The notes under the pieces: model-generated
Told to the model about the DNA's origin: nothing
What the model saw: only the letters and a program-made list of their open reading frames with translations
Database searches by the model: none
Position numbers and translations under genes: made by a program
Part shown: piece after piece, positions 3,003 through 12,261 of the stretch
Layout of the letters: every line of letters starts with the position of its first letter
Numbering within the stretch: the stretch's first letter is position 1
Assembly (NCBI GenBank): GCA_038740895.1
Contig: JAVYLK010000001.1
Coordinates: 175,656-239,655, forward strand
Source of the DNA: Candidatus Caldarchaeum sp.
Lineage (GTDB): Archaea > Thermoproteota > Nitrososphaeria_A > Caldarchaeales > Caldarchaeaceae
Direction: 5' to 3'
Length of the DNA stretch: 64,000 nucleotides

Positions 3003-4589
3003 ATGTCTTTGGACGTTTTGGCTTATGTTGCGACTTCAACGGCTGCTGTGGCTGCTTCTTGGGCACGGATGGGCATAGCTCTCGCATTCTCAGTTCTGTT
3101 CTCGTTCCTAGTCGGAACCTTGGCGGGAACCAACAAGTTTTTTGAAAGAATAGCCATACCCGTGCTAGACGTACTCCAGTCAATCCCCATTCTAGGCTTC
3201 TTCCCCGTAGCCATAACGCTCTTCTACACAATCTTCCCGGTTGTAGGAGCTGAGATGGCCGCAATCTTCCTAATCTTCACGAGCCAGGCCTGGAACATCA
3301 CGTTCGCAGTCTACGAAGGAACAAGGTTGATCAAATCAGAGCTTCTTGACACGGCTCGGTTCCTCGGAATCAGCTGGTTCGAGAAGTTTAGGTATCTTTA
3401 TGTTCCGGCAACCCTTCCACGGGTTTTGTACAACCTCCAGCCCTCATGGGCCAACGGAATTTTCTTCCTCGTCGGAAGCGAGATACTCACCTTTGGCGAG
3501 ACTGAGATGGAGTTGTTCGGCCTGGGAACGGTGATCTCGAGGTACACGATTGAAGGCGACACTGTGGGTGTTCTGATAACCCTTTTGATGCTCGTTTTGG
3601 CGACTTTGATAACGACGTTCTTTGTCTTTCTCCCCCTCACCCAGCTCACCGAGCCCAGGAGAAAACCACCAAGAGAGATGCAGCCCTACGTAAAAATCAT
3701 GAGGCGGGTTCTAGGTCCTGCGTTCAGAACCGTCTACCTGCCATCCCATCTCATTTTCTTCGAGTACAACAAAGCAATCGAACAGCTGACTAGACGTGTC
3801 TCCCTGTCAACTTCCCTGATCAGGGGTGTCCTATTCTTCCTCCTAGGAGGGCTGCTGATAGCTCTGCTTATAGCTCGAGGAGAGGAGCTGCTGGCCAGGC
3901 TTTCTTTCCTAGCGCGGGAAGTGAACGAAGTTGGTCTTGAGAACCTTGCCGTCTCCTCGGCTTACTCCTTCGGACGTGTAGCAGCCGCCGTGTCTTTTTC
4001 AGTAGCCTGGAGCCTTCCAGCAGCTATTGCGATATCGAGAAGGGAGAGGCTTTCATCAACAGCGACCACCCTCGTTCAGATTATTGCTTCAATACCCGCC
4101 ACAATTGTTTACCCACTCTTCGCCAGCCAGCTAGCTGGCCAGCCTGAGCTGAGGACCTTCCTGATGACTGTGGCAGCCACGCAGTATTATGTTTTCTTCC
4201 AAGTCTACGGAGGAGTCAAGAACATTCCTAAGGTTGAGCTGGAGTTGACGGAGCTTCTGGGTCTCAGGACACTAGACAGGATTAGGAATGTATACATACC
4301 TAGGCTGCTTCCCCCCCTCGTCACAGGCTGCATCACAGCTGCCGGTGGTGCTTGGAACAGTTTAGTGGTTTCGGAGAGGCTAGTCCTCGGCGATGTTGTT
4401 GCTGAGACGGATTTGCCTGGTCTTGGTAAGCTTTTGTCTCTGATGACGTATGAGGGGAATTTGGTCGGCAGCGTCGTCGTGATAACTGTGATGTCCAGTC
4501 TGATAGTTTTGATGAACAGGCTTTTCTGGAAGAGGCTCTACGATGTTGTTATCTCACGTCTTAAAATTCAAGAAGAAGCTGGGAAGTAG
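3003..4589 (+). CDS. ABC transporter permease, tandem-duplicated (NitT/TauT-type binding-protein-dependent inner membrane component)
   Basis: Two repeated multi-TM halves. Each carries an EAA-like loop: [24 protein letters not shown] and [25 protein letters not shown]. Confidence 0.7.
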
Positions 4590-4612
4590 GGGATGGAAGG
4601 CGGTGGAGGCGT

Positions 4613-5374
4613 GTGAGGGAGCCAATAATCAGCGTTGTCGACGTCTCGCACAGTTTTTACACTCGGAAAGGCATGAACATAGATGTTCTGAAGAACATGA
4701 ACATCAACCTTTACTACGGGGAGTTCTTGGGAGTCGTTGGACAGAGTGGCTCCGGCAAGACAACGCTTCTCAAGATCATGGCTGGGCTAATCAAGCCGAC
4801 GTCGGGAAAAGTGTTGTACAAGTCGAAGCCGCTGGACGGCCCGACACCAGCCATATCACTGGTCTTCCAGGAACCGGCCCTGTTTCCATGGCTAACGGTT
4901 CTCGAGAACGTCGTCCTCGCCCTCAAACGGTTTAAAGAGCTATCGAAGCAGGAAGCTGTTGAAAGAGCTAGGTCTTATCTCGACATGGTTGGCCTGTCGG
5001 GTTTTGAGTATGTTTACCCGGGCGAGCTAAGCGGCGGCATGAAGCAGCGGGTTGTCCTTGCGCGGGCCTTAGTAACGAACCCAGACGTGCTGCTGATGGA
5101 TGAGCCGTTCAGCAACGTCGACCCTCTTACAGCTGTGTCGCTGCGGCGTGAGATCGACATGCTGCGGGCGCATGAGACCCTTCCCCCTTCCTCTGTTCTT
5201 CTAGTATCTCACAACGTCGAGGAGATCGTCGAGCTGAGCGACAGGGTCTTAGTTCTGAGCGGAAGGCCCGCCGAGGTCAAGGGGGAGATAAGGGTTTTAA
5301 TGGAGAAGCCTCGGGATAGGAGAAGTCCTCAGTTCTACGAGTACGTTGACCAGATCTTCACGTTGATGAGTTAA
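4613..5374 (+). CDS. ABC transporter ATP-binding protein (NitT/TauT family)
   Basis: Walker [13 protein letters not shown] signature LSGGMKQR, Walker B LLMDEPFS. Lies immediately downstream of the permease. Confidence 0.85.
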
Positions 5375-5877
5375 ACGGTCTTACGTGCTCTTAGCCTGAA
5401 AAGCCCCGAGTCCCCGTCGTAGCTCAGCAGCTCCGTGTAGATCATCCAGTCCATAAGAAGCTCCCGCAGCTTCTCCGTGTCTTCTGCGTACTGGACGAGG
5501 TTGGGGTCGTTGGACAGACGGTTTACCAAGTCGTCTATGCTGAAGCCTTTCGGGTTCTCCCTAGCCAGGTTCAGGGCAGTTGAGAAAGGCTCTAGGTTAG
5601 GAACCTGTTCCTTCAAAATCCTCTTCTTTCCCTTAGACAGGCTTTTGCTTACTTTAATCCCCAGCTGAGTGGCCACGCCTTCACCGTCATGAATCTCGAG
5701 AACGCCCAGCATCTCCGCCGCCGTCGAAGCGGGGAGTATCTCGTCAACCTCCATCTGGAGCTCTCTGGCTATGAAAGCTAGGTCAGCCTTTCCTCCGTAT
5801 GCGACGACAAGCTCGAGGAGGCCTAGGACGGTCCCTAGCCGGGCGTCGAGGGGGAAGTTCTTCGGCTGTTGCCCCAT
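5371..5877 (-). CDS. stand-alone AAA-associated C-terminal domain protein (usually fused to NitT/TauT ABC ATPases)
   Basis: Pattern [55 protein letters not shown] ... [19 protein letters not shown] matches the AAA-associated domain as I recall it. Convergent with the ABC ATPase, overlapping by 4 nt. Confidence 0.5.
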
Positions 5878-5914
5878 ACGTCTTTGGGACTGGGTTCGTC
5901 CTAAATTAACACTT

Positions 5915-7081
5915 CTACGAAAGGTTTAATACAAGCCTCTCAACGGCTTCAGCTGCACGCCTAGCTCCGCCCAACTCCCGCACCCTACTCTGGTGTGTTT
6001 TGGCGGCATGGTCCATGCGGCTGTTTTCGAGAACATCGGAGACAACAGCCTCGAACTCCGAAGCGTCCAGCATGTCTTGGTCATAAACCTCAGCCAACCC
6101 AAGCTCCTTAGCCTTCAAAGCGTTAGCATTCTGCTCTCCGTGCTGAGGCGTGGGGATCAGCAGCATCTTCTTACCGTACGCCATGCATTTAGTTATCAGC
6201 GTTAGGCCGCCCCTCCCAACAACCAAGTCTGCGGCCATAATCATGCTGTCTAGGTCTTCAACCCAGCTAGATACGTAAAAAGACCCTACCCTGAAAGACT
6301 CGCCGCCACCGGGGTTAGCTGTTGAGAGGACGTAGCTGAACCTGCTGCTCAGCCTGGGGGCGATCTCTAAGAACTTTTCGACAAGCCTTCTCTTCTCCTC
6401 CAACCCGCCGCTTACGGTTATCAGTACAAGAGGCTTATCAGAGCCGCCGTACGTCCTCCTCAAACTCATCATCTCCTGTTGTGAAACGGCCGGCGGGTCG
6501 ACCAACGGGCCCACGTACAAGACTCTGTTAACGACTTTTCGCGGGAAGTCGAGAGTGGCTTCGGAAATTGTGCTTGGCGGCGGCAGGTCGGGCACGATTA
6601 TTACGTCCGACAAGTCCCAGATGAGCTGAGCCGCCTGGAGGGCTGGCTCGGCAAGCTTCGCAGCCCTTCTGTGCCTTCGAGTCTCTAGCAGGAGGTTGTA
6701 CTGGTTTAGTATTGTGGCTACAGGCTTGTTCATCAGCTTGGCGGCCGCTACGGCTGAGGCTCTCGTGTCTGAGACTACGCAATCTGTCCCTGTCTCGGAG
6801 ATGTTTACCGCTTCTGCGCCGACCTGTGATAGGAAGCGGGCTGGGAGCGTGATGTTTTCCTTAATCGTCTTCTTTACGCTCACTACTCCGTCATCCCCAA
6901 CTCCATACTTGACTGCGGGAACTCTTGAAGGGCTGAACCCCGTCCGCTCCAAGTAGGGGACGGCCTGTCCGTAAGCCGAGAACGAAACTCCATGACCCCT
7001 TCTCATCAACTCCCTCGCCACGACTAAGCTCCTGGAAGCATGCCCTAGCCCGATTCCGCACACAGCTACATGGATAAACAT
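5915..7081 (-). CDS. glycosyltransferase (MurG/MGDG-synthase-like GT28/GT1 fold)
   Basis: C-terminal GT-B motif GGLTLITKCMAYGKKMLLIPTPQHGEQNANALKAKELGLA. 388 aa. Confidence 0.65.
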   Translation of the reverse strand: MFIHVAVCGIGLGHASRSLVVARELMRRGHGVSFSAYGQAVPYLERTGFSPSRVPAVKYGVGDDGVVSVKKTIKENITLPARFLSQVGAEAVNISETGTDCVVSDTRASAVAAAKLMNKPVATILNQYNLLLETRRHRRAAKLAEPALQAAQLIWDLSDVIIVPDLPPPSTISEATLDFPRKVVNRVLYVGPLVDPPAVSQQEMMSLRRTYGGSDKPLVLITVSGGLEEKRRLVEKFLEIAPRLSSRFSYVLSTANPGGGESFRVGSFYVSSWVEDLDSMIMAADLVVGRGGLTLITKCMAYGKKMLLIPTPQHGEQNANALKAKELGLAEVYDQDMLDASEFEAVVSDVLENSRMDHAAKTHQSRVRELGGARRAAEAVERLVLNLS

Positions 7082-7668
7082 TACTGCCTACGCACCACAG
7101 CCCCTCTAGGCTCAACCTCCGAGAAAACCTCAGCCCTGAACTTGCTGAGACGCATCTCGCCATAAACCCAGTAAGTTGGGTTGAGACCCGCTTTGACGCA
7201 GAGATGGGAGAGGTATTCTTCAGCATTCCAGCCGTACTCGACGGGCACTTGGGGAAGAAGTAGGCCAGAGCCGTAGGGGGTTTCCAAGACCAGCCCATCC
7301 TTACCCACCTCTATCTTCGCCGGCAGCTCCTCTCTCGAAACGCTGCTAACTGGCACGGGAGGAGTAAGCACGCTTACCTCGAACACGACCCTAGGAAGCT
7401 CCTCAATCGTCATCGGCGGAAACCTGGGGTCGTCGAAGGCAGCTGCAAGAGCCGCCCTAGCCGTGGCCTCATCCAGCGGCATGTCCGGCTTGACAAAACC
7501 TATGCATCCACGCAGCTCCTTGGCTGGATGGGTGTATATCGAGACGAACACTCCTCTCTTCTCCTGCAAGTACTGACCCACGGGCTTGTAAAGCTTTTGC
7601 GTCGCAAAATAGTGCTCCACGGCCCTTCGCGCGACAGAGACGAGTAGAGCTCCTTCCTCCAAGTTCAT
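7081..7668 (-). CDS. AMMECR1 domain protein
   Basis: RGCIGF motif in ELRGCIGFVKPDMPLDEA. I place the start at the internal M (MNLEEGALLV...) so the gene does not overlap the upstream ORF. The track's longer start is at 7728. Confidence 0.7.
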   Translation of the reverse strand: MNLEEGALLVSVARRAVEHYFATQKLYKPVGQYLQEKRGVFVSIYTHPAKELRGCIGFVKPDMPLDEATARAALAAAFDDPRFPPMTIEELPRVVFEVSVLTPPVPVSSVSREELPAKIEVGKDGLVLETPYGSGLLLPQVPVEYGWNAEEYLSHLCVKAGLNPTYWVYGEMRLSKFRAEVFSEVEPRGAVVRRQ

Positions 7669-7675
7669 CTCCACA

Positions 7676-8095
7676 CTAAGTCTGAAGCCGCTCAAGCGTC
7701 TTACTAATGTTTCTCCAGTGGCCTCCAACCCAGTATTGCTTACCGCAGAAAACGCAAACCCATCTAGGAGGCTGATTCGACAACTTTTCCAGCACCGTGT
7801 TGCACTCGGGGCAGCGGCTGTTGTCCATGCTGAAGACGAGTGTTATGCCTGTCTCGGACTGGATTTTTTTAAGCCCTTGGACTACGTCGTTGGAGTCAAG
7901 TAGAACACTTCTGACCAAGCCTTTGACAGCCCTTTGAGCCAGCTCTCTGTCCCTCGTGACTAAGACCCTCTCTCCCCTCCTCGCGGCTTCAATAAGTTCG
8001 TCGTCAGAAAGGTTATCGCCGTAAAGAGTGTCGTACCCCAACAGCCTCAACCAAGTCACTAGGTGGCCGAGCATAGTGTCGAGGATAAACTTCAT
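7676..8095 (-). CDS. Mut7-C RNase domain protein (PIN-like nuclease + C-terminal zinc ribbon; DUF82)
   Basis: MKFILDTMLGHLVTWLRLLGYDT...VLVTRDREL plus CPECN...CVFCGKQYWVGGHW, the Mut7-C/DUF82 signature. Confidence 0.7.
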   Translation of the reverse strand: MKFILDTMLGHLVTWLRLLGYDTLYGDNLSDDELIEAARRGERVLVTRDRELAQRAVKGLVRSVLLDSNDVVQGLKKIQSETGITLVFSMDNSRCPECNTVLEKLSNQPPRWVCVFCGKQYWVGGHWRNISKTLERLQT

Positions 8096-8706
8096 TTTGG
8101 AGCGCTGAACTTCTCCTTCCCCTCAAGCTCCAGCCGGCATTCCTCGCAAAGAAGCTGGTCCTCAACCCTCACCAGAAGGTCCGACCACTCGCCGCAGGAA
8201 TCGCAGTAGCCTTCGACGGGGTTTGAAGACGGGTATGCCGCAGCTCCGCCGATCTTTAGCTTTTCCCTCACAATAGACAGAATCTCGGGGGTGACTTGGA
8301 GAATGTCCTTGATCGTGACAACTCCGACAAGTTTATCTTTATAGACCACTGCAAGCCTGCTGAGCTTGAGACGGTTCATCTTGCTCAAAGCCTCTTCGAT
8401 TACTATATCTGGCTCGATCGTCTGGAGAGGCGTGGTCATGATATCTCTGGCTTTCACCTTGTTAGGGTCGCTGCCGTTGGCCACAACCTGGCAGACTATG
8501 TCTGTCTTGGTAATGATTCCTAAAGGCTTGCCGTTCGAGGTTATTATTATGCTGCCTATGCCGTACTTCCTCATCAACCCAGCGACCTCAACTATCGTCG
8601 CTGAGTCGCTTGCCTCGATGACCGGGCTTGACATCACGTCTCTGACCCTGACTTCGTCAAAAAGGGCTGTCGGCTTGACCATCTTCTCCCAACCTACTTT
8701 ACACAA
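8092..8706 (-). CDS. CBS-pair domain protein with C-terminal Cys4 zinc ribbon
   Basis: Two CBS repeats (VRDVMSSPVIEAS..., ARDIMTTPLQTIEP...) and CDSCGEW...LLCEEC at the C-terminus. ATGA overlap with the Mut7-C gene. Confidence 0.75.
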   Translation of the reverse strand: MCKVGWEKMVKPTALFDEVRVRDVMSSPVIEASDSATIVEVAGLMRKYGIGSIIITSNGKPLGIITKTDIVCQVVANGSDPNKVKARDIMTTPLQTIEPDIVIEEALSKMNRLKLSRLAVVYKDKLVGVVTIKDILQVTPEILSIVREKLKIGGAAAYPSSNPVEGYCDSCGEWSDLLVRVEDQLLCEECRLELEGKEKFSAPK

Positions 8707-10596
8707 CTAACGACTAATAAGCTTGTCCAAATAATACACTGAGCAGCGTCCGAACGGTATCTGGGCTGCGAGCATGTCGGCCTCTTCCTTGGAGAGTGTT
8801 GCTTCCATAAGACTCAAAACCTTAATAGCAGCATCTTCAGCCAACGTCCTCCCCGGCCTAAGCTCGACGAAACTACGTCCCGACCGGAGAGCCGTGAGGT
8901 AGGGAACAACCGTAAAGCCTTTCTCCATCCGGACAGCCGCAAGCCGAAGTTCGGCTGAGACGTATCTTCTCTGGCCGTAGACCATGAAAGAACCCTTCGG
9001 CAGGAACTGGCCCGAGGGCGGGGTGAAGGAGACTTGGTCCGCCGCCACGTAGTAAACCGATGCGTTTGAGAACATCTCCCTCCAAGCCCTGCTGTAGGAG
9101 GCGGTGAACTGGGCTGCCTCCATTATGTCTGCTTCAGAGGCTCTCCCCCCGTCCTTCAGGACCGTCGCCGGCGAACCCGCCACCTCTGTATGGAACACGA
9201 CATCGTTTCCGGCTAGGTGTTGCTTGAGCAACTTTATGTTTGACCTGCTGTCCCTCCCCGACATAGCTAAAAAACCACCCGAAGTCGTGAACTCTCTGAA
9301 CGGCTTGACCTGCCTACGGGGCGTAGGCTTGGGCAGGTGCTTCTCCAGCCCAGCCAACTCGCTGCCAGAAGTAAGGCGTCTAACCCTATCGTCGATCTGC
9401 TCAACCTCGGCTGAAAGCTTCACCACCGAGTTTTTGAGGGTTTTGAGCTCGTCGTACAGCTTTCCAAGTTCTCGGTGTATTGAGGAGGTGCGCCTCAGCA
9501 CAAGCCTCAGTTCTCCCATCTGAAGCGTCAGCGTGTTTTCTCCCAGCTCAGCCCTGCATCCCGTTGATGCGAAGACCTCTTCAACTGCTTCCCTAGGAGC
9601 TGTCCACGGGTCTTCCAGCATGTAAGTCAACGGCTTGGTTCTGTTGATGAAGTTCTCCAGATCGTCTATTCTCCGCCTCAACTTCTCTATTGCAAAAAGC
9701 TTGTCCCCCTTCTCCTTCTCCAAAGCTTCTACCTTCTGCTGAATGGCTTTCTTCTCCTCGTCCATTCGCCTTCTGCCGACTTCATTTATGTAAGCCTCCA
9801 AAACGGCCTCGCTGAAGCTGGTTTTTTCTACGAATTCGAAGTCGTGGAGAGACCTGAGCTCGACGGGGCTGGGCACCGCTTCCAGCCCACGCTTATATAC
9901 TCGGGGGCGGGGCTTGGCCATCTCATCGAAAAGGTCCTTCAGAGCCACTGCGATCCTCGTCCTCTCCTCCTCGGACAGGCTTGACGTCTTCCTCCTTTTC
10001 TCAACGCCAGCCCTGTACAGAACCTCTTCAGCGTACTTCCCTCCCAGGCCTAGGTCTCTAGAAAGAGACGCAACGACGGGTGATCCCGGGTTGAGCATGT
10101 GGAGATGGTCGGAGGGGTTCATAGAAGGTATGAGGGCGAACTTTTCAGCTGGGGGTTTGTATGCAGCCCCTTTGACTACGGTTCGTCCAGAAGACTTGAC
10201 AGGCTCGAGCAGCCATATCACGGTTTCGTCCCGGAGTAGGAAGACACCGCCGGGAGGCAATAGCTCTGCCACGATTTTAAGCCCATCTCTGTTGAACGCA
10301 AGTTCCACAATCCTCTCGGACCCAAGCTGGTTCAACGCAGTTATTTTCAGGCCTTCGACCATCCTCCTTAGATGGAGGATGGTGGCCGGCGGCTCGGCCG
10401 GCTTGGGGTACGGAGTGGACGTGTATGTAATCATCTTCCCGGCTGCTACTAAAAGTTCGTAGGACTGAAACTGGGGCTTGTAAAGCCTGAAGACCGTCGT
10501 CCTTTCCTCCGTCTGGTATACGTTTTTGACGTAGGCGTCTTCGACAAGCTCTTTGAGCTCCTTCACGACAACCGTGAGCTCCGCTGATGTAAGCAT
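8707..10596 (-). CDS. NFACT-family protein (Rqc2/NEMF/FbpA homolog: NFACT-N plus DUF814/NFACT-R)
   Basis: FbpA-like N-terminus LTSAELTVVVKELKELVEDAYVKNVYQTEERTTVFRLYK, a long central coiled coil, and a C-terminal DUF814-like segment VVFHTEVAGSPATVLKDGGRASEADIMEAAQFTASYS. 629 aa. Confidence 0.7.
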   Translation of the reverse strand: MLTSAELTVVVKELKELVEDAYVKNVYQTEERTTVFRLYKPQFQSYELLVAAGKMITYTSTPYPKPAEPPATILHLRRMVEGLKITALNQLGSERIVELAFNRDGLKIVAELLPPGGVFLLRDETVIWLLEPVKSSGRTVVKGAAYKPPAEKFALIPSMNPSDHLHMLNPGSPVVASLSRDLGLGGKYAEEVLYRAGVEKRRKTSSLSEEERTRIAVALKDLFDEMAKPRPRVYKRGLEAVPSPVELRSLHDFEFVEKTSFSEAVLEAYINEVGRRRMDEEKKAIQQKVEALEKEKGDKLFAIEKLRRRIDDLENFINRTKPLTYMLEDPWTAPREAVEEVFASTGCRAELGENTLTLQMGELRLVLRRTSSIHRELGKLYDELKTLKNSVVKLSAEVEQIDDRVRRLTSGSELAGLEKHLPKPTPRRQVKPFREFTTSGGFLAMSGRDSRSNIKLLKQHLAGNDVVFHTEVAGSPATVLKDGGRASEADIMEAAQFTASYSRAWREMFSNASVYYVAADQVSFTPPSGQFLPKGSFMVYGQRRYVSAELRLAAVRMEKGFTVVPYLTALRSGRSFVELRPGRTLAEDAAIKVLSLMEATLSKEEADMLAAQIPFGRCSVYYLDKLISR

Positions 10597-10683
10597 CCTA
10601 CTAACTCAACGTAGTCCGGGTTGGTAAAAACTGTTGACCTGCCAACCTTAAATTAGCGTTTTCTTGAAGAGAACGGAGGAAGC

Positions 10684-10953
10684 TTGGGCTTCGACTACGT
10701 CTACTGGGTCAAAGTTTTCACAGCTGTCGTTTATGGATACATCTCGGCTCTGGGAGCCATAGCCCTCGAATCCGCTTTGTATATCTATGTTTTTCTGTTG
10801 ACGGCGGTTGTCATCTACATCTTTCTCGCCGAGGTTATCTGGAGAATGAGCGGTATGAAGGTTCGGAGGAGACAATCCTACCTTAACGGGGCGGGAGGGT
10901 ACGCAGGTGTATACCTTCTTGCCTGGCTGTTGTTTTTCAACCTTCTTGCGTAG
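10684..10953 (+). CDS. small hydrophobic membrane protein (hypothetical)
   Basis: 89 aa with 2-3 predicted TM helices. Divergent from the NFACT gene. No homology recognised. Confidence 0.3.
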   Translation: MGFDYVYWVKVFTAVVYGYISALGAIALESALYIYVFLLTAVVIYIFLAEVIWRMSGMKVRRRQSYLNGAGGYAGVYLLAWLLFFNLLA

Positions 10954-11302
10954 CGGTTATTTTCGCCGGCTTGGGCAGCTTCTCAACAGCCTCGAGCACG
11001 TGCCGCCACGCATGGAAGAACCTGTCGTCTCCTCCAAGCGTCTTTGATAGAGCCTCCAAGCACTTCTTGACATCGCTCTTCCTCCTCCTAAACTCCTCGT
11101 TGAGATAAAGCATGTACAGCAAAGAGTCTCTGTCTTCACCGACGTAGGAATGGTACAAACCCTTGAGGGCATGGATGTACCTCGCGTCGTCTGGATGTTT
11201 CTCCTCCAGCTGGGTGAGATACTTCTCAGCCTCGGTAAGCCTGTTCCTGAACAGAATATCTAGGAACTCGAAGGTCTCCTTGGCCGAGACAACCATCATC
11301 AT
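10937..11302 (-). CDS. hypothetical protein (121 aa), translationally coupled to radA
   Basis: Start ATGATGATG overlaps the radA stop by 4 nt. Predicted helical protein, no recognised motif. Confidence 0.45.
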
Positions 11303-12261
11303 CCACCTTCTTCAACATCCTCGACGCCGTTCTCAGTTATCTGGAAAACCGCCTCCCCCTCAGGCAGGTAAGGGCTCGAGACCAGACGAGCTATCCTCGT
11401 CCTCCTGCCAGAGACTTTGCGGAGCAAAACTCTGTTATGGCTTGTGTGGCCGACGACATGGCCTCCTATCGGGTAGACTGCCAGGCTGCTTATGTCGTCA
11501 GGCCTTGCCATCACCTGGTTCGTGGCTACGGCGGCGGCGTTGAAGGCTCTGGCCAGCCTAACGATGCGATGCATGTGTTTGTTCAGCTTCTGCTGCCTCT
11601 CAGGAAGCATCTGCCTTCCAAGGTATTCGCTCCTGAAGTGAGCGGTCAAGGAGTCGACTATAATCAGTTTAACGTTTTTCTCCTTGATGACCTTGTCAGA
11701 CTTCTCGATTAGGAGTATTTGATGGTCGCTTGTGTAGGCTTCTGCGTATACTATGCGCTCCATCACCTCGTCCGGTTCAAGCCCTAGATGCTTGGCCATC
11801 GATACTATTCTTTCAGGTCTGAAGGTGTTCTCGGTGTCTATGTAGAGCGCCGACCCGTCGAGTCCCCCCCTCCTTACTGGAAGCTGAACGTTCACGGCTA
11901 GCTGGTGGCATATCTGGGACTTGCCCGTGCCAAACTCTCCGAAGAACTCTGTTATCGCCTGTGTCTCAACGCCTCCGCCGAGCAGCATGTCAAGCCTCAT
12001 GCTTCCCGTGGTAACGCGGCCTATCGAGGTCTTGAGTTCGGCCAACTCCTTCGCAGTCACCCACGTGATTTCGATAAACTCCCTTGCTGTCGAGATTACT
12101 CGCGATGCCTGCTTATCGTCGAACCCTGCTGCAACAAGCTCAGCCACCGTGGCTGTTGCGACAGACTCGACGGTTGTGTACCCCATCTCCCTTAGCCTTT
12201 CCGCAAGCTGTTTGCTCACCCCGGGCAAGTCCTCCAAGAATACGTAGCGAGGCTCTTTCAA
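11299..12261 (-). CDS. radA: DNA repair and recombination protein RadA
   Basis: N-terminal HhH domain, Walker [18 protein letters not shown], Walker [16 protein letters not shown], and the characteristic [10 protein letters not shown] segment. 320 aa, no intein. Confidence 0.9.

Follow-up and report, generated by a model that had tools for sequence, protein, structure and literature searches.

An archaeal NFACT, Mut7-C and AMMECR1 gene neighbourhood in Candidatus Caldarchaeum, its embedded CBS/zinc-ribbon family and a tentative connection with ribosome quality control

The window analysed here is a stretch of 64 kb (64,000 nucleotides) from a metagenome-assembled genome of Candidatus Caldarchaeum sp., which belongs to the Aigarchaeota/Caldarchaeales and not to the Crenarchaeota in the strict sense, so that the Thermoproteales/Crenarchaeota framing of a preceding sequence-only reading of this DNA has to be corrected. 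It contains five consecutive minus-strand genes, whose coordinates in that reading are confirmed by a six-frame listing of open reading frames (ORFs): (i) an NFACT gene (8707-10596, 629 amino acids (aa)) encoding an archaeal homologue of RqcH/Rqc2/NEMF, (ii) a gene encoding a CBS pair with a C-terminal Cys4 zinc ribbon, called CBS-ZnR hereafter (8092-8682, 196 aa), (iii) a Mut7-C gene whose product combines a PIN-like/TOPRIM-like core with a Zn ribbon (7676-8095, 139 aa), (iv) an AMMECR1 gene of the TIGR00296 type (7081-7668, 195 aa, inside a longer ORF 7081-7728) and (v) a gene for a GT-B glycosyltransferase (GT) of the GT28 / MJ1255 type (5915-7081, 388 aa). All the domain assignments made beforehand were upheld by Pfam and NCBIfam. 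A plus-strand gene for an EMC6-like small membrane protein (10684-10953, 89 aa) diverges from NFACT.

Gene junctions were read directly from the sequence letters. The stop codon of CBS-ZnR overlaps the start codon of Mut7-C (ATGA), the Mut7-C stop is followed after 7 nt by the ATG of AMMECR1 (alternative AMMECR1 starts are GTG 7674 and TTG 7695), and the AMMECR1 stop and the GT start have 1 nt in common (TAATG). The observed packing is correct and well above chance; within it, the two overlaps stand as described and only the supposed abutment of NFACT and CBS-ZnR does not. Indeed, the mechanical ORF 8092-8706 opens with a TTG at 8706, and the most likely start of CBS-ZnR is the ATG at 8682, because its orthologues open with MVKP; the two genes would therefore be separated by a 24-nt spacer containing GGGAG. 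The sole sizeable non-coding gap upstream of the cluster is the 87-nt spacer between NFACT and the EMC6-like gene (10597-10683), presumably the promoter region. Its minus strand has an A/T-rich AATTTAAG at 10647-10654, 51-58 nt ahead of the NFACT ATG. A scan of positions 5200-11400 for sigma-70 promoters and intrinsic terminators, which does not model archaeal promoters, gave counts at or below shuffle expectation. The cluster is probably transcribed as a single unit from this 87-nt spacer.

Starting from a 24-sequence alignment of Mut7-C, 80 species-level loci (numbered with the prefix L) were fetched and annotated by tblastn and phmmer with the window proteins. They include 16 Caldarchaeales-like and 63 Thermoprotei loci, the grouping being based on record labels and synteny and not on phylogeny. 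Of the 16 Caldarchaeales-like loci, 15 reach far enough upstream for NFACT to be visible, and in 14 of these 15 it is directly followed by CBS-ZnR and then by Mut7-C; small ORFs interrupt this order in L030. AMMECR1 comes directly after Mut7-C in 12 of the 15 Caldarchaeales-like loci with enough downstream sequence, the other three having an insertion of 1-3 kb, and the GT gene and an AAA_assoc_C gene follow further downstream. The gene order around a Mut7-C protein labelled Ca. Caldarchaeum subterraneum at NCBI is identical to that of the window.

The neighbourhood extends well beyond this order (arrowheads below give gene orientation). In a locus labelled Nitrososphaerota (L089), the series NFACT > CBS > Mut7-C > AMMECR1 > GT > AAA_assoc_C is intact in a different upstream context. 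Bathyarchaeia have RadA > 142 aa > < 104 aa < > NFACT > CBS-ZnR > amidohydrolase > Mut7-C > AMMECR1 > GT, Baldrarchaeia (Asgard) have NFACT > amidohydrolase > Mut7-C > AMMECR1 > GT, and Methanomethylicota have NFACT > CBS-ZnR > three genes with four CBS domains (4xCBS) > Mut7-C > AMMECR1 > GT. In Nezhaarchaeales the pair < CBS-ZnR < NFACT diverges from amidohydrolase > Mut7-C > AMMECR1. Among Thermoprotei, Mut7-C > AMMECR1 are adjacent in 47 of 61 informative loci. Of the 25 fully flanked loci, 18 have NFACT less than 10 kb from Mut7-C, at 3.8-6.4 kb, on either strand and in at least five arrangements. Reduced versions also occur: Freyarchaeota have only Mut7-C > AMMECR1 > GT, Stetteria has CBS > CBS > Mut7-C > AMMECR1 without NFACT, Mut7-C stands alone in Sulfolobales-type loci and AMMECR1 stands alone in the one Thermococcus locus. 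The conservation of the neighbourhood, which the sequence-only reading proposed as a check, was thus found over class- and phylum-level distances (Nitrososphaeria, Bathyarchaeia and Methanomethylicota, with variants in Asgard, Nezhaarchaeales and Desulfurococcales). We conclude that this is an ancient cluster made up of two stable modules, NFACT(+CBS) and (CBS+)Mut7-C+AMMECR1, which are fused in the window. The most faithful partner of Mut7-C is AMMECR1, not NFACT. To speak of a dedicated nuclease translationally coupled to a ribosome quality control (RQC) factor is therefore an overstatement: the gene directly coupled to NFACT is CBS-ZnR, and Mut7-C stays with AMMECR1.

The core of this linkage is already known. 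Burroughs and Aravind (2014, RNA Biol 11:360; PMC4075521) described a conserved archaeal neighbourhood of NFACT, Mut7-C and AMMECR1, listing "caldiarchaeota", in which the partners of NFACT, namely an active Mut7-C RNase domain with a Zn ribbon and AMMECR1, were read as an RNA-modification pathway; the window has the same three families on one strand and in the same order. AMMECR1 (arCOG01336) was also linked to a PIN + Zn-ribbon family (arCOG04290) by Makarova, Wolf and Koonin in 2019 (PMC6393860). The linkage of these genes is consequently not a new idea, its core having been published in 2014 with this genus covered. The wording "all archaeal lineages" in PMC4075521 is in turn partly qualified by the solitary Thermococcus AMMECR1, because of which we do not consider the cluster universal in archaea. 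The base-modification reading predates the RQC role of NFACT, and no paper joining Mut7-C or AMMECR1 with RQC was found in the literature searched, a 2019 review by the same authors being silent on the matter. The RQC re-reading therefore appears to be unpublished in that literature, and it is an interpretation rather than a new observation. In its main text, PMC4075521 has no CBS/Zn-ribbon gene, Sri-like array, amidohydrolase, GT or EMC6-like gene. Four observations seem to be new, as judged from the papers searched: the occurrence of CBS-ZnR as a single orthologous family within the cluster, the sriABCD-like genes that fill the NFACT-Mut7-C gap in Desulfurococcales and Methanomethylicota, the CBS-ZnR family upstream of sriABCD in Methanosarcina-like contigs, and the EMC6-like gene as a conserved divergent neighbour of NFACT.

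The assignment of NFACT as an Rqc2/NEMF homologue is supported by domain and sequence matches. Pfam detects NFACT_N (PF05833, 131 bits, E=6.8e-38, residues 7-315) and the whole profile length of NFACT-R_1 (PF05670, DUF814; 92.6 bits, E=2.9e-26, residues 433-541), and the NCBIfam model RqcH_arch (NF041120) matches residues 3-618, its full length, with a score of 390.5 bits that falls narrowly under the cutoff of 400. PDB sequence matches are NEMF, Rqc2 and RqcH, and an alignment with the N-termini of NEMF and Rqc2 places an ER of the window protein on D96-R97 of NEMF. This [D/E]R motif occurs in all 53 aligned sequences (52 archaeal NFACTs and a human NEMF fragment as reference), as ER in 47 and DR in 6. 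The Asp-Arg motif of NFACT-N, implicated in tRNA binding and tailing, is thus retained at the sequence level, the change from D to E being conservative. Homologous NFACT proteins bind large subunits that still hold peptidyl-tRNA and recruit tRNA for C-terminal tailing. By now, NFACT proteins have been shown to be tRNA-recruiting RQC factors and not glycosylase-like enzymes (PMC8373112, and PDB entries of RqcH, Rqc2 and NEMF on ribosomes). The likeness to eukaryotic RQC (Rqc2/NEMF with Vms1/ANKZF1) lies in NFACT-N, NFACT-R and [D/E]R, whereas the eRF1-like fold of Vms1 bears no relation to Mut7-C and no Ltn1, Rqc1 or Cdc48 partner is encoded at the Caldarchaeum locus. Similarly, NFACT-N, coiled coil and NFACT-R are common to the bacterial RqcH-RqcP system of poly-alanine tailing, and Bacillus subtilis RqcH aligns over residues 12-505, but the locus has no RqcP (Hsp15-like) gene. 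Unlike archaeal NFACT genes, the bacterial ones have no conserved gene neighbourhood (PMC4075521).

The window Mut7-C protein matches its Pfam family (PF01927) with 108.7 bits against a cutoff of 23.3 (E=3.5e-31), residues 1-133 covering positions 1-145 of the 146 of the profile. Over 24 homologues with 41-82% identity to it, D6, D22, D31, T47 and D49 are invariant, a position near residue 68 is mostly acidic, and the zinc ribbon C95, C98, C114 and C117 is invariant in 24/24 sequences. The PIN-like acidic residues whose absence would have spoken against the sequence-only reading are therefore kept, as D6, D22, D31 and D49. In an AlphaFold2 model with a predicted local distance difference test (pLDDT) score of 91.9, D6 comes after strand 1 and D49 after strand 3. 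As its best PDB folds, Foldseek aligns this model with the C-terminal domain (CTD) of Caenorhabditis elegans MUT-7 (8q66_A) with a TM-score relative to the query (TMq) of 0.59, a probability of 1.00, E=0.031 and a root mean square deviation of 3.2 over 116 columns, and gives only a weak match to the AF0591 PIN domain (E=0.016, TMq 0.31). The invariant acidic residues and the confident fold model make catalysis by Mut7-C plausible.

Published views on this domain differ. Burroughs and Aravind scored the archaeal Mut7-C versions as active (PMC4075521). Matelska et al. described a "deteriorated" PIN whose only general catalytic residue is the first and whose activity "depends on the species" (PMC5499597). 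The sole experimental study of the fold, on the MUT7-C of MUT-7, reports RNA binding, a TOPRIM-like core without PIN similarity and a structural zinc finger (PMC11347159). The description of Mut7-C as a PIN-like nuclease with a zinc ribbon hence holds for the ribbon and for the conservation of acidic residues, while its nuclease activity is putative and its PIN similarity contested (PMC11347159). With respect to animal MUT-7/EXD3 (PDB 8Q66; PMC11347159), the archaeal protein has the same Pfam domain PF01927, the fold match and the zinc finger, and it is a stand-alone minimal form that lacks the DEDDy exonuclease and the insertions of the animal protein; the invariant acidic residues that it retains suggest catalysis. 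That Mut7-C cleaves tRNA or mRNA in particular seems to us doubtful. Mut7-C could instead be a non-catalytic RNA-binding adaptor which tethers tRNA or rRNA for AMMECR1 or NFACT, with no nuclease arm at all. The experimental findings and the deteriorated catalytic site just cited fit such a role, and so does the model, which is closer to the MUT-7 CTD than to any nuclease. Against this adaptor role stand the four aspartates invariant in 24 archaeal sequences, the position of D6 and D49 after beta-strands 1 and 3, as in active sites of the PIN/TOPRIM type, and the scoring of archaeal versions as active (PMC4075521); we consider it rather improbable.

The CBS-ZnR protein contains two CBS domains (Pfam, E=2.5e-27), and in the family alignment T58, D61 and D126, at the T/D positions that bind ribose/adenosine, are invariant. 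The Cys4 ribbon noticed in the sequence-only reading is real, its four cysteines (C160, C163, C179 and C182; signature CxxCGxWSD...CExC) being invariant as well. Members have about 181-217 aa and 45-100% identity among the search matches, and in Nitrososphaeria, Bathyarchaeia, Nezhaarchaeales and Methanomethylicota the family is encoded next to NFACT on its downstream side or just ahead of Mut7-C. By sequence and position they are one orthologous family embedded in the NFACT/Mut7-C cluster. It evolves more slowly than NFACT, as judged from L010 (87% identity for CBS-ZnR, 51% for NFACT). When the 50-aa ribbon tail served as a phmmer query, 1.84 billion representatives yielded 19 matches, all of them relatives of about 190-200 aa, the query being too short to gauge the size of the family. 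The succession of a CBS pair and a Cys4 metal-binding ribbon is common to TA0289-type proteins ("CBS-rubredoxin-like"; PDB 1PVM, 2QH1 and 3GHD), and Foldseek aligns 1pvm and 2qh1 with the window protein over 157-173 columns; however, the phmmer similarity to both extends over the CBS pair only (residues 11-129, E=1.8e-7), and the ribbon signature is specific to the family of the present cluster.

In Thermoprotei and Methanomethylicota, two to five 4xCBS genes are arrayed in the NFACT-Mut7-C slot. Such arrays separate NFACT from Mut7-C or adjoin one of them in L051 (6520-9927) and in L018, L020, L029, L033, L036, L047, L056, L062, L063, L065, L072, L078 and L085, and where the cluster is split the array remains with NFACT or with Mut7-C. 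The Desulfurococcales locus L051 reads NFACT > sriA > sriB > sriC > sriD > Mut7-C > AMMECR1, the best PDB matches of its four CBS genes being SriA, SriB, SriC and SriD of Methanosarcina acetivorans in this order (E=2.7e-41, 1.6e-45, 2.1e-30 and 1.6e-20; chains of PDB 9ZNF and 9ZNI, identified according to PMC13004131). In L029 and L091, CBS-ZnR is followed by Sri-like genes. Scanning of metagenome contigs with SriB yielded 45 Methanosarcina-like loci (L098-L137 among our labels), of which 33 have a gene of the CBS-ZnR family directly upstream of sriABCD (for example L099:7761-8390), the remainder being mostly incomplete loci. This position agrees with that of MA4647, a "dual CBS gene MA4647 immediately upstream" of sriABCD that is reportedly not co-transcribed with it (PMC13004131). 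As side observations, an RPA-like 484-aa gene precedes CBS-ZnR in the Methanosarcina-like loci, and downstream of the operon, in the same orientation, there is a 390-aa gene with a KxNG ligase-like motif.

Sri (SriA-D), Dri, HibA/AHA and ARC-P/ARC-A are archaeal CBS-domain factors of ribosome hibernation described in 2025-2026 (PMC13004131, PMC13324472, PMC12934967, 10.64898/2026.01.19.700304). They bind archaeal ribosomes, some with AMP/ATP sensing (PMC13004131, 10.64898/2026.01.19.700304, PMC12934967), and neither PMC13004131 nor the ARC preprint mentions NFACT or gene neighbourhoods, as searched with such terms. CBS-ZnR resembles these factors in its CBS (Bateman) modules, whose T/D positions for adenosine binding are canonical, and in its genomic slot, where sriABCD-like genes replace or follow it elsewhere. 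One may therefore consider that CBS-ZnR, and perhaps Mut7-C and AMMECR1, work with Sri/Dri factors in a hibernation or energy-state module, NFACT being adjacent only through a common large-subunit target. The ordered sriA-D genes of L051, the succession of CBS-ZnR and Sri-like genes in L029 and L091 and the Methanosarcina-like pairing speak for this, as does the best PDB sequence match of the window CBS-ZnR, which is Dri (9e6q_3, E=2.5e-15). CBS domains are promiscuous, however, so that such best matches weigh little. Moreover, CBS-ZnR has one CBS pair with a Cys4 ribbon in 196 aa against four tandem CBS domains in the Sri/Dri proteins (about 260-340 aa) and is not a member of that family, MA4647 is reported not to be co-transcribed with sriABCD (PMC13004131), and no 4xCBS gene is present in the window. 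We judge a hibernation module with an incidental NFACT to be unlikely.

The AMMECR1 protein is identified by Pfam (PF01871, 176 bits, E=4.5e-52), by TIGR00296 (198 bits against a cutoff of 91) and by its similarity to PH0010/1VAJ (E=8.5e-53), and it carries the LRGCIG(F) cysteine motif. It also matches TIGR04335 (178 bits), yet the cluster and its flanks contain neither a Memo nor a radical-SAM gene, and an AmmeMemoRadiSam system was rejected. The original proposal of 2014 rests on this protein: its RAGNYA fold and conserved cysteine led to the prediction of an RNA-base-modifying enzyme (PMC4075521), with Mut7-C and AMMECR1, possibly joined by NFACT, acting on rRNA or tRNA during biogenesis or repair and not in the clearance of stalled ribosomes. 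The presence of the LRGCIG motif in the window protein agrees with this proposal, and so do the RNA enzymes encoded nearby in other loci, namely a TRM5/TYW2 methyltransferase after the GT gene (L087), ThiI after the GT gene (L095 and L096) and TYW3 near the Stetteria locus, as well as the persistence of the Mut7-C and AMMECR1 pair without NFACT in Stetteria and Freyarchaeota. On the other side, we know of no modification linked to AMMECR1, and the CBS/Sri link favours whole-ribosome states over biogenesis. NFACT, for its part, has since been shown to be a tRNA-recruiting RQC factor and not glycosylase-like (PMC8373112). A pathway restricted to RNA modification or processing is in our opinion not a likely explanation.

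We see in the locus the Caldarchaeum version of an ancient archaeal neighbourhood, EMC6-like < > NFACT > CBS-ZnR > Mut7-C > AMMECR1 > GT28-like. The explanation that we favour for it, as a quite possible account which we would not yet call probable, derives the roles of its members from gene order. Briefly, obstructed 50S subunits (50S-peptidyl-tRNA) would be marked by NFACT. The Mut7-C/AMMECR1 pair would then act on RNA in or from the NFACT-bound particle, the likeliest target being the tRNA 3' end or nearby RNA, with Mut7-C as a metal-dependent RNase or at least an RNA-binding subunit and AMMECR1 as the partner enzyme. Finally, CBS-ZnR would tie the activity of this pair to adenine-nucleotide (energy) status at the ribosome, a role suggested by its relatives in the same genomic slot, which are hibernation factors of the Sri/Dri type. 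The GT and EMC6-like genes would be conserved passengers or looser partners. The residues conserved in Mut7-C (acidic and Cys), NFACT ([D/E]R) and CBS-ZnR (T/D), like the cysteine motif of AMMECR1, are consistent with functional modules. Speculatively, an NFACT on an obstructed large subunit together with an RNA-directed enzyme that resolves peptidyl-tRNA would parallel eukaryotic RQC.

Several points weigh against this explanation. Most Thermoprotei have NFACT and Mut7-C apart or in opposite orientation, Freyarchaeota, Stetteria and Sulfolobales-type loci show no linkage of the two, and AMMECR1 is solitary in Thermococcus. Archaeal hydrolases of the Pth2 type could release RQC substrates without any nuclease. 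No NFACT, Mut7-C or AMMECR1 gene was found within 10 kb of the Methanosarcina-like sri loci, and the NFACT-sri link is therefore lineage-restricted. MUT7-C resembles TOPRIM, not PIN, with only RNA binding seen (PMC11347159), and the PIN match in Foldseek is weak. Lastly, unrelated housekeeping genes (RadA, GT and EMC6-like) are conserved in the same stretch, so that inherited synteny explains part of the pattern.

This last point has to be weighed together with the flanking genes. Upstream of the NFACT/EMC6-like pair, the window carries RadA (320 aa) and an overlapping 121-aa gene without family match (10937-12261, minus strand). Both are conserved in Caldarchaeales, because of which synteny within this order is partly general; the pairing recurs in Bathyarchaeia (L095), and a RadA/Rad51-family gene adjoins the NFACT-CBS pair in Nezhaarchaeales (L097). 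The EMC6-like gene encodes a protein of 88-131 aa with two to three membrane helices and diverges from NFACT with a gap below 100 nt in Caldarchaeales, Desulfurococcales (many loci), Methanomethylicota, Bathyarchaeia, Nezhaarchaeales and Baldrarchaeia (positional orthologues at L094:5725-5994, L029:4593-4922, L095:5111-5425 and L097:6016-6342). Its matches to EMC6/EMC6_arch are repeated and full-length but below threshold, only the Asgard orthologue passing the Pfam cutoff (26 against 23.3 bits), and a literature search for a link of archaeal EMC6 with this neighbourhood gave nothing useful. It is a conserved neighbour of NFACT whose functional membership is uncertain; beside an RQC factor, it might hint at a link with membrane insertion. 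The GT gene, which follows AMMECR1 in Nitrososphaeria, Bathyarchaeia, Methanomethylicota, Baldrarchaeia and Freyarchaeota, contains Glyco_trans_1_3 and Glyco_tran_28_C (Pfam) and scores 110.6 bits with TIGR00661 (MJ1255), under the cutoff of 195.9. It is probably a housekeeping glycosylation enzyme and may, from its sequence, be an Alg14-13-type enzyme of N-glycan chitobiose. Its N-terminal GIGLGH14 resembles, as a resemblance only, the essential GGH motif of Agl24/Alg14-13/MurG (PMC8993221).

A slowly rearranging ancestral block of housekeeping genes, in which NFACT and Mut7-C are neighbours by descent without functional coupling, would account for the conservation of RadA and its small companion, of the GT28-like and EMC6-like genes, and for the splitting of the Thermoprotei block, apparently without cost, to one side or the other of the CBS array. 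It would also accommodate the topoisomerase VI, ThyX and dCTP deaminase genes found between the two modules; in one Desulfurococcaceae arrangement the topoisomerase VI A and B genes split NFACT from Mut7-C. But Mut7-C > AMMECR1 keep an overlap or a gap below 100 nt across Asgard, Bathyarchaeia, Nitrososphaeria, Methanomethylicota and Thermoprotei, an unusual persistence if the genes were unrelated, NFACT remains less than 10 kb away in at least five rearranged architectures, and the block is intact in a new context in L089. Descent without coupling seems to us unlikely. A toxin-antitoxin or anti-phage reading of the PIN-like gene was rejected, because PADLOC found nothing on the window beyond a weak coiled-coil match of NFACT to LmuB and because the neighbours, CBS and AMMECR1, stand in ancient and stable chromosomal synteny across phyla, and the DUF5615 match of Mut7-C (24.0 bits against a cutoff of 23.8) covers only its N-terminal 54 residues.

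Other genes of the surroundings complete the description. A DHOase-like amidohydrolase (Amidohydro_1, 444-448 aa) lies directly upstream of Mut7-C, often overlapping it, in four lineages, namely Bathyarchaeia (L095:8126-9466), Baldrarchaeia (L094:8114-9460), Nezhaarchaeales (L097:6352-7686) and one further contig (L091:8360-9706); it is absent from the Caldarchaeum cluster. Downstream of the GT gene, the window encodes a stand-alone AAA_assoc_C protein (5371-5877, minus strand, 168 aa), which converges with a 4-nt overlap on the ATPase gene of a plus-strand ABC transporter (3003-5374; permease 3003-4589, ATPase 4613-5374). This gene is syntenic with the cluster throughout Caldarchaeales, and its product probably belongs to the transporter. 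A topoisomerase VI B protein (L024:7922-9499, minus strand) shows a weak NFACT_N match (E=1.3e-5, residues 228-307), presumably owing to a common helix-hairpin/H2TH-like element.

The favoured explanation, an NFACT-marked large subunit served by Mut7-C/AMMECR1 and energy-gated by CBS-ZnR, can be taken further. One CBS-ZnR family sits both between NFACT and Mut7-C (TACK) and upstream of sriABCD (Methanosarcina-like), which leads to the proposal that CBS-ZnR is a previously unrecognised ribosome-associated energy sensor bridging two archaeal ribosome-surveillance systems, that the island is one coordinated pathway and that Mut7-C is the missing RNA-cleaving enzyme of release or clearance in archaeal RQC. 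We regard this extended proposal as a long shot. If true, adenine-nucleotide status would choose the fate of an idle or obstructed large subunit, which would be protected (Sri), tailed (NFACT) or have its RNA cut or processed (Mut7-C/AMMECR1).

To our knowledge, archaeal RQC is essentially uncharacterised, including the resolution of 50S-peptidyl-tRNA complexes to which NFACT is bound. AMMECR1, a gene of a human disease region, occurs in most archaea and eukaryotes, and the Mut7-C domain is ancient; we know of no established function for either. The interpretation of the sequence-only reading was reasonable and is partly supported. The conserved operon that joins AMMECR1 and Mut7-C to NFACT is the best available lead, but we know of no experiments that have taken it up since its publication in 2014. 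The presence in this cluster of the CBS-ZnR family and of sriABCD genes, the latter described in 2026, links this old lead to the fast-moving field of CBS-based ribosome hibernation.

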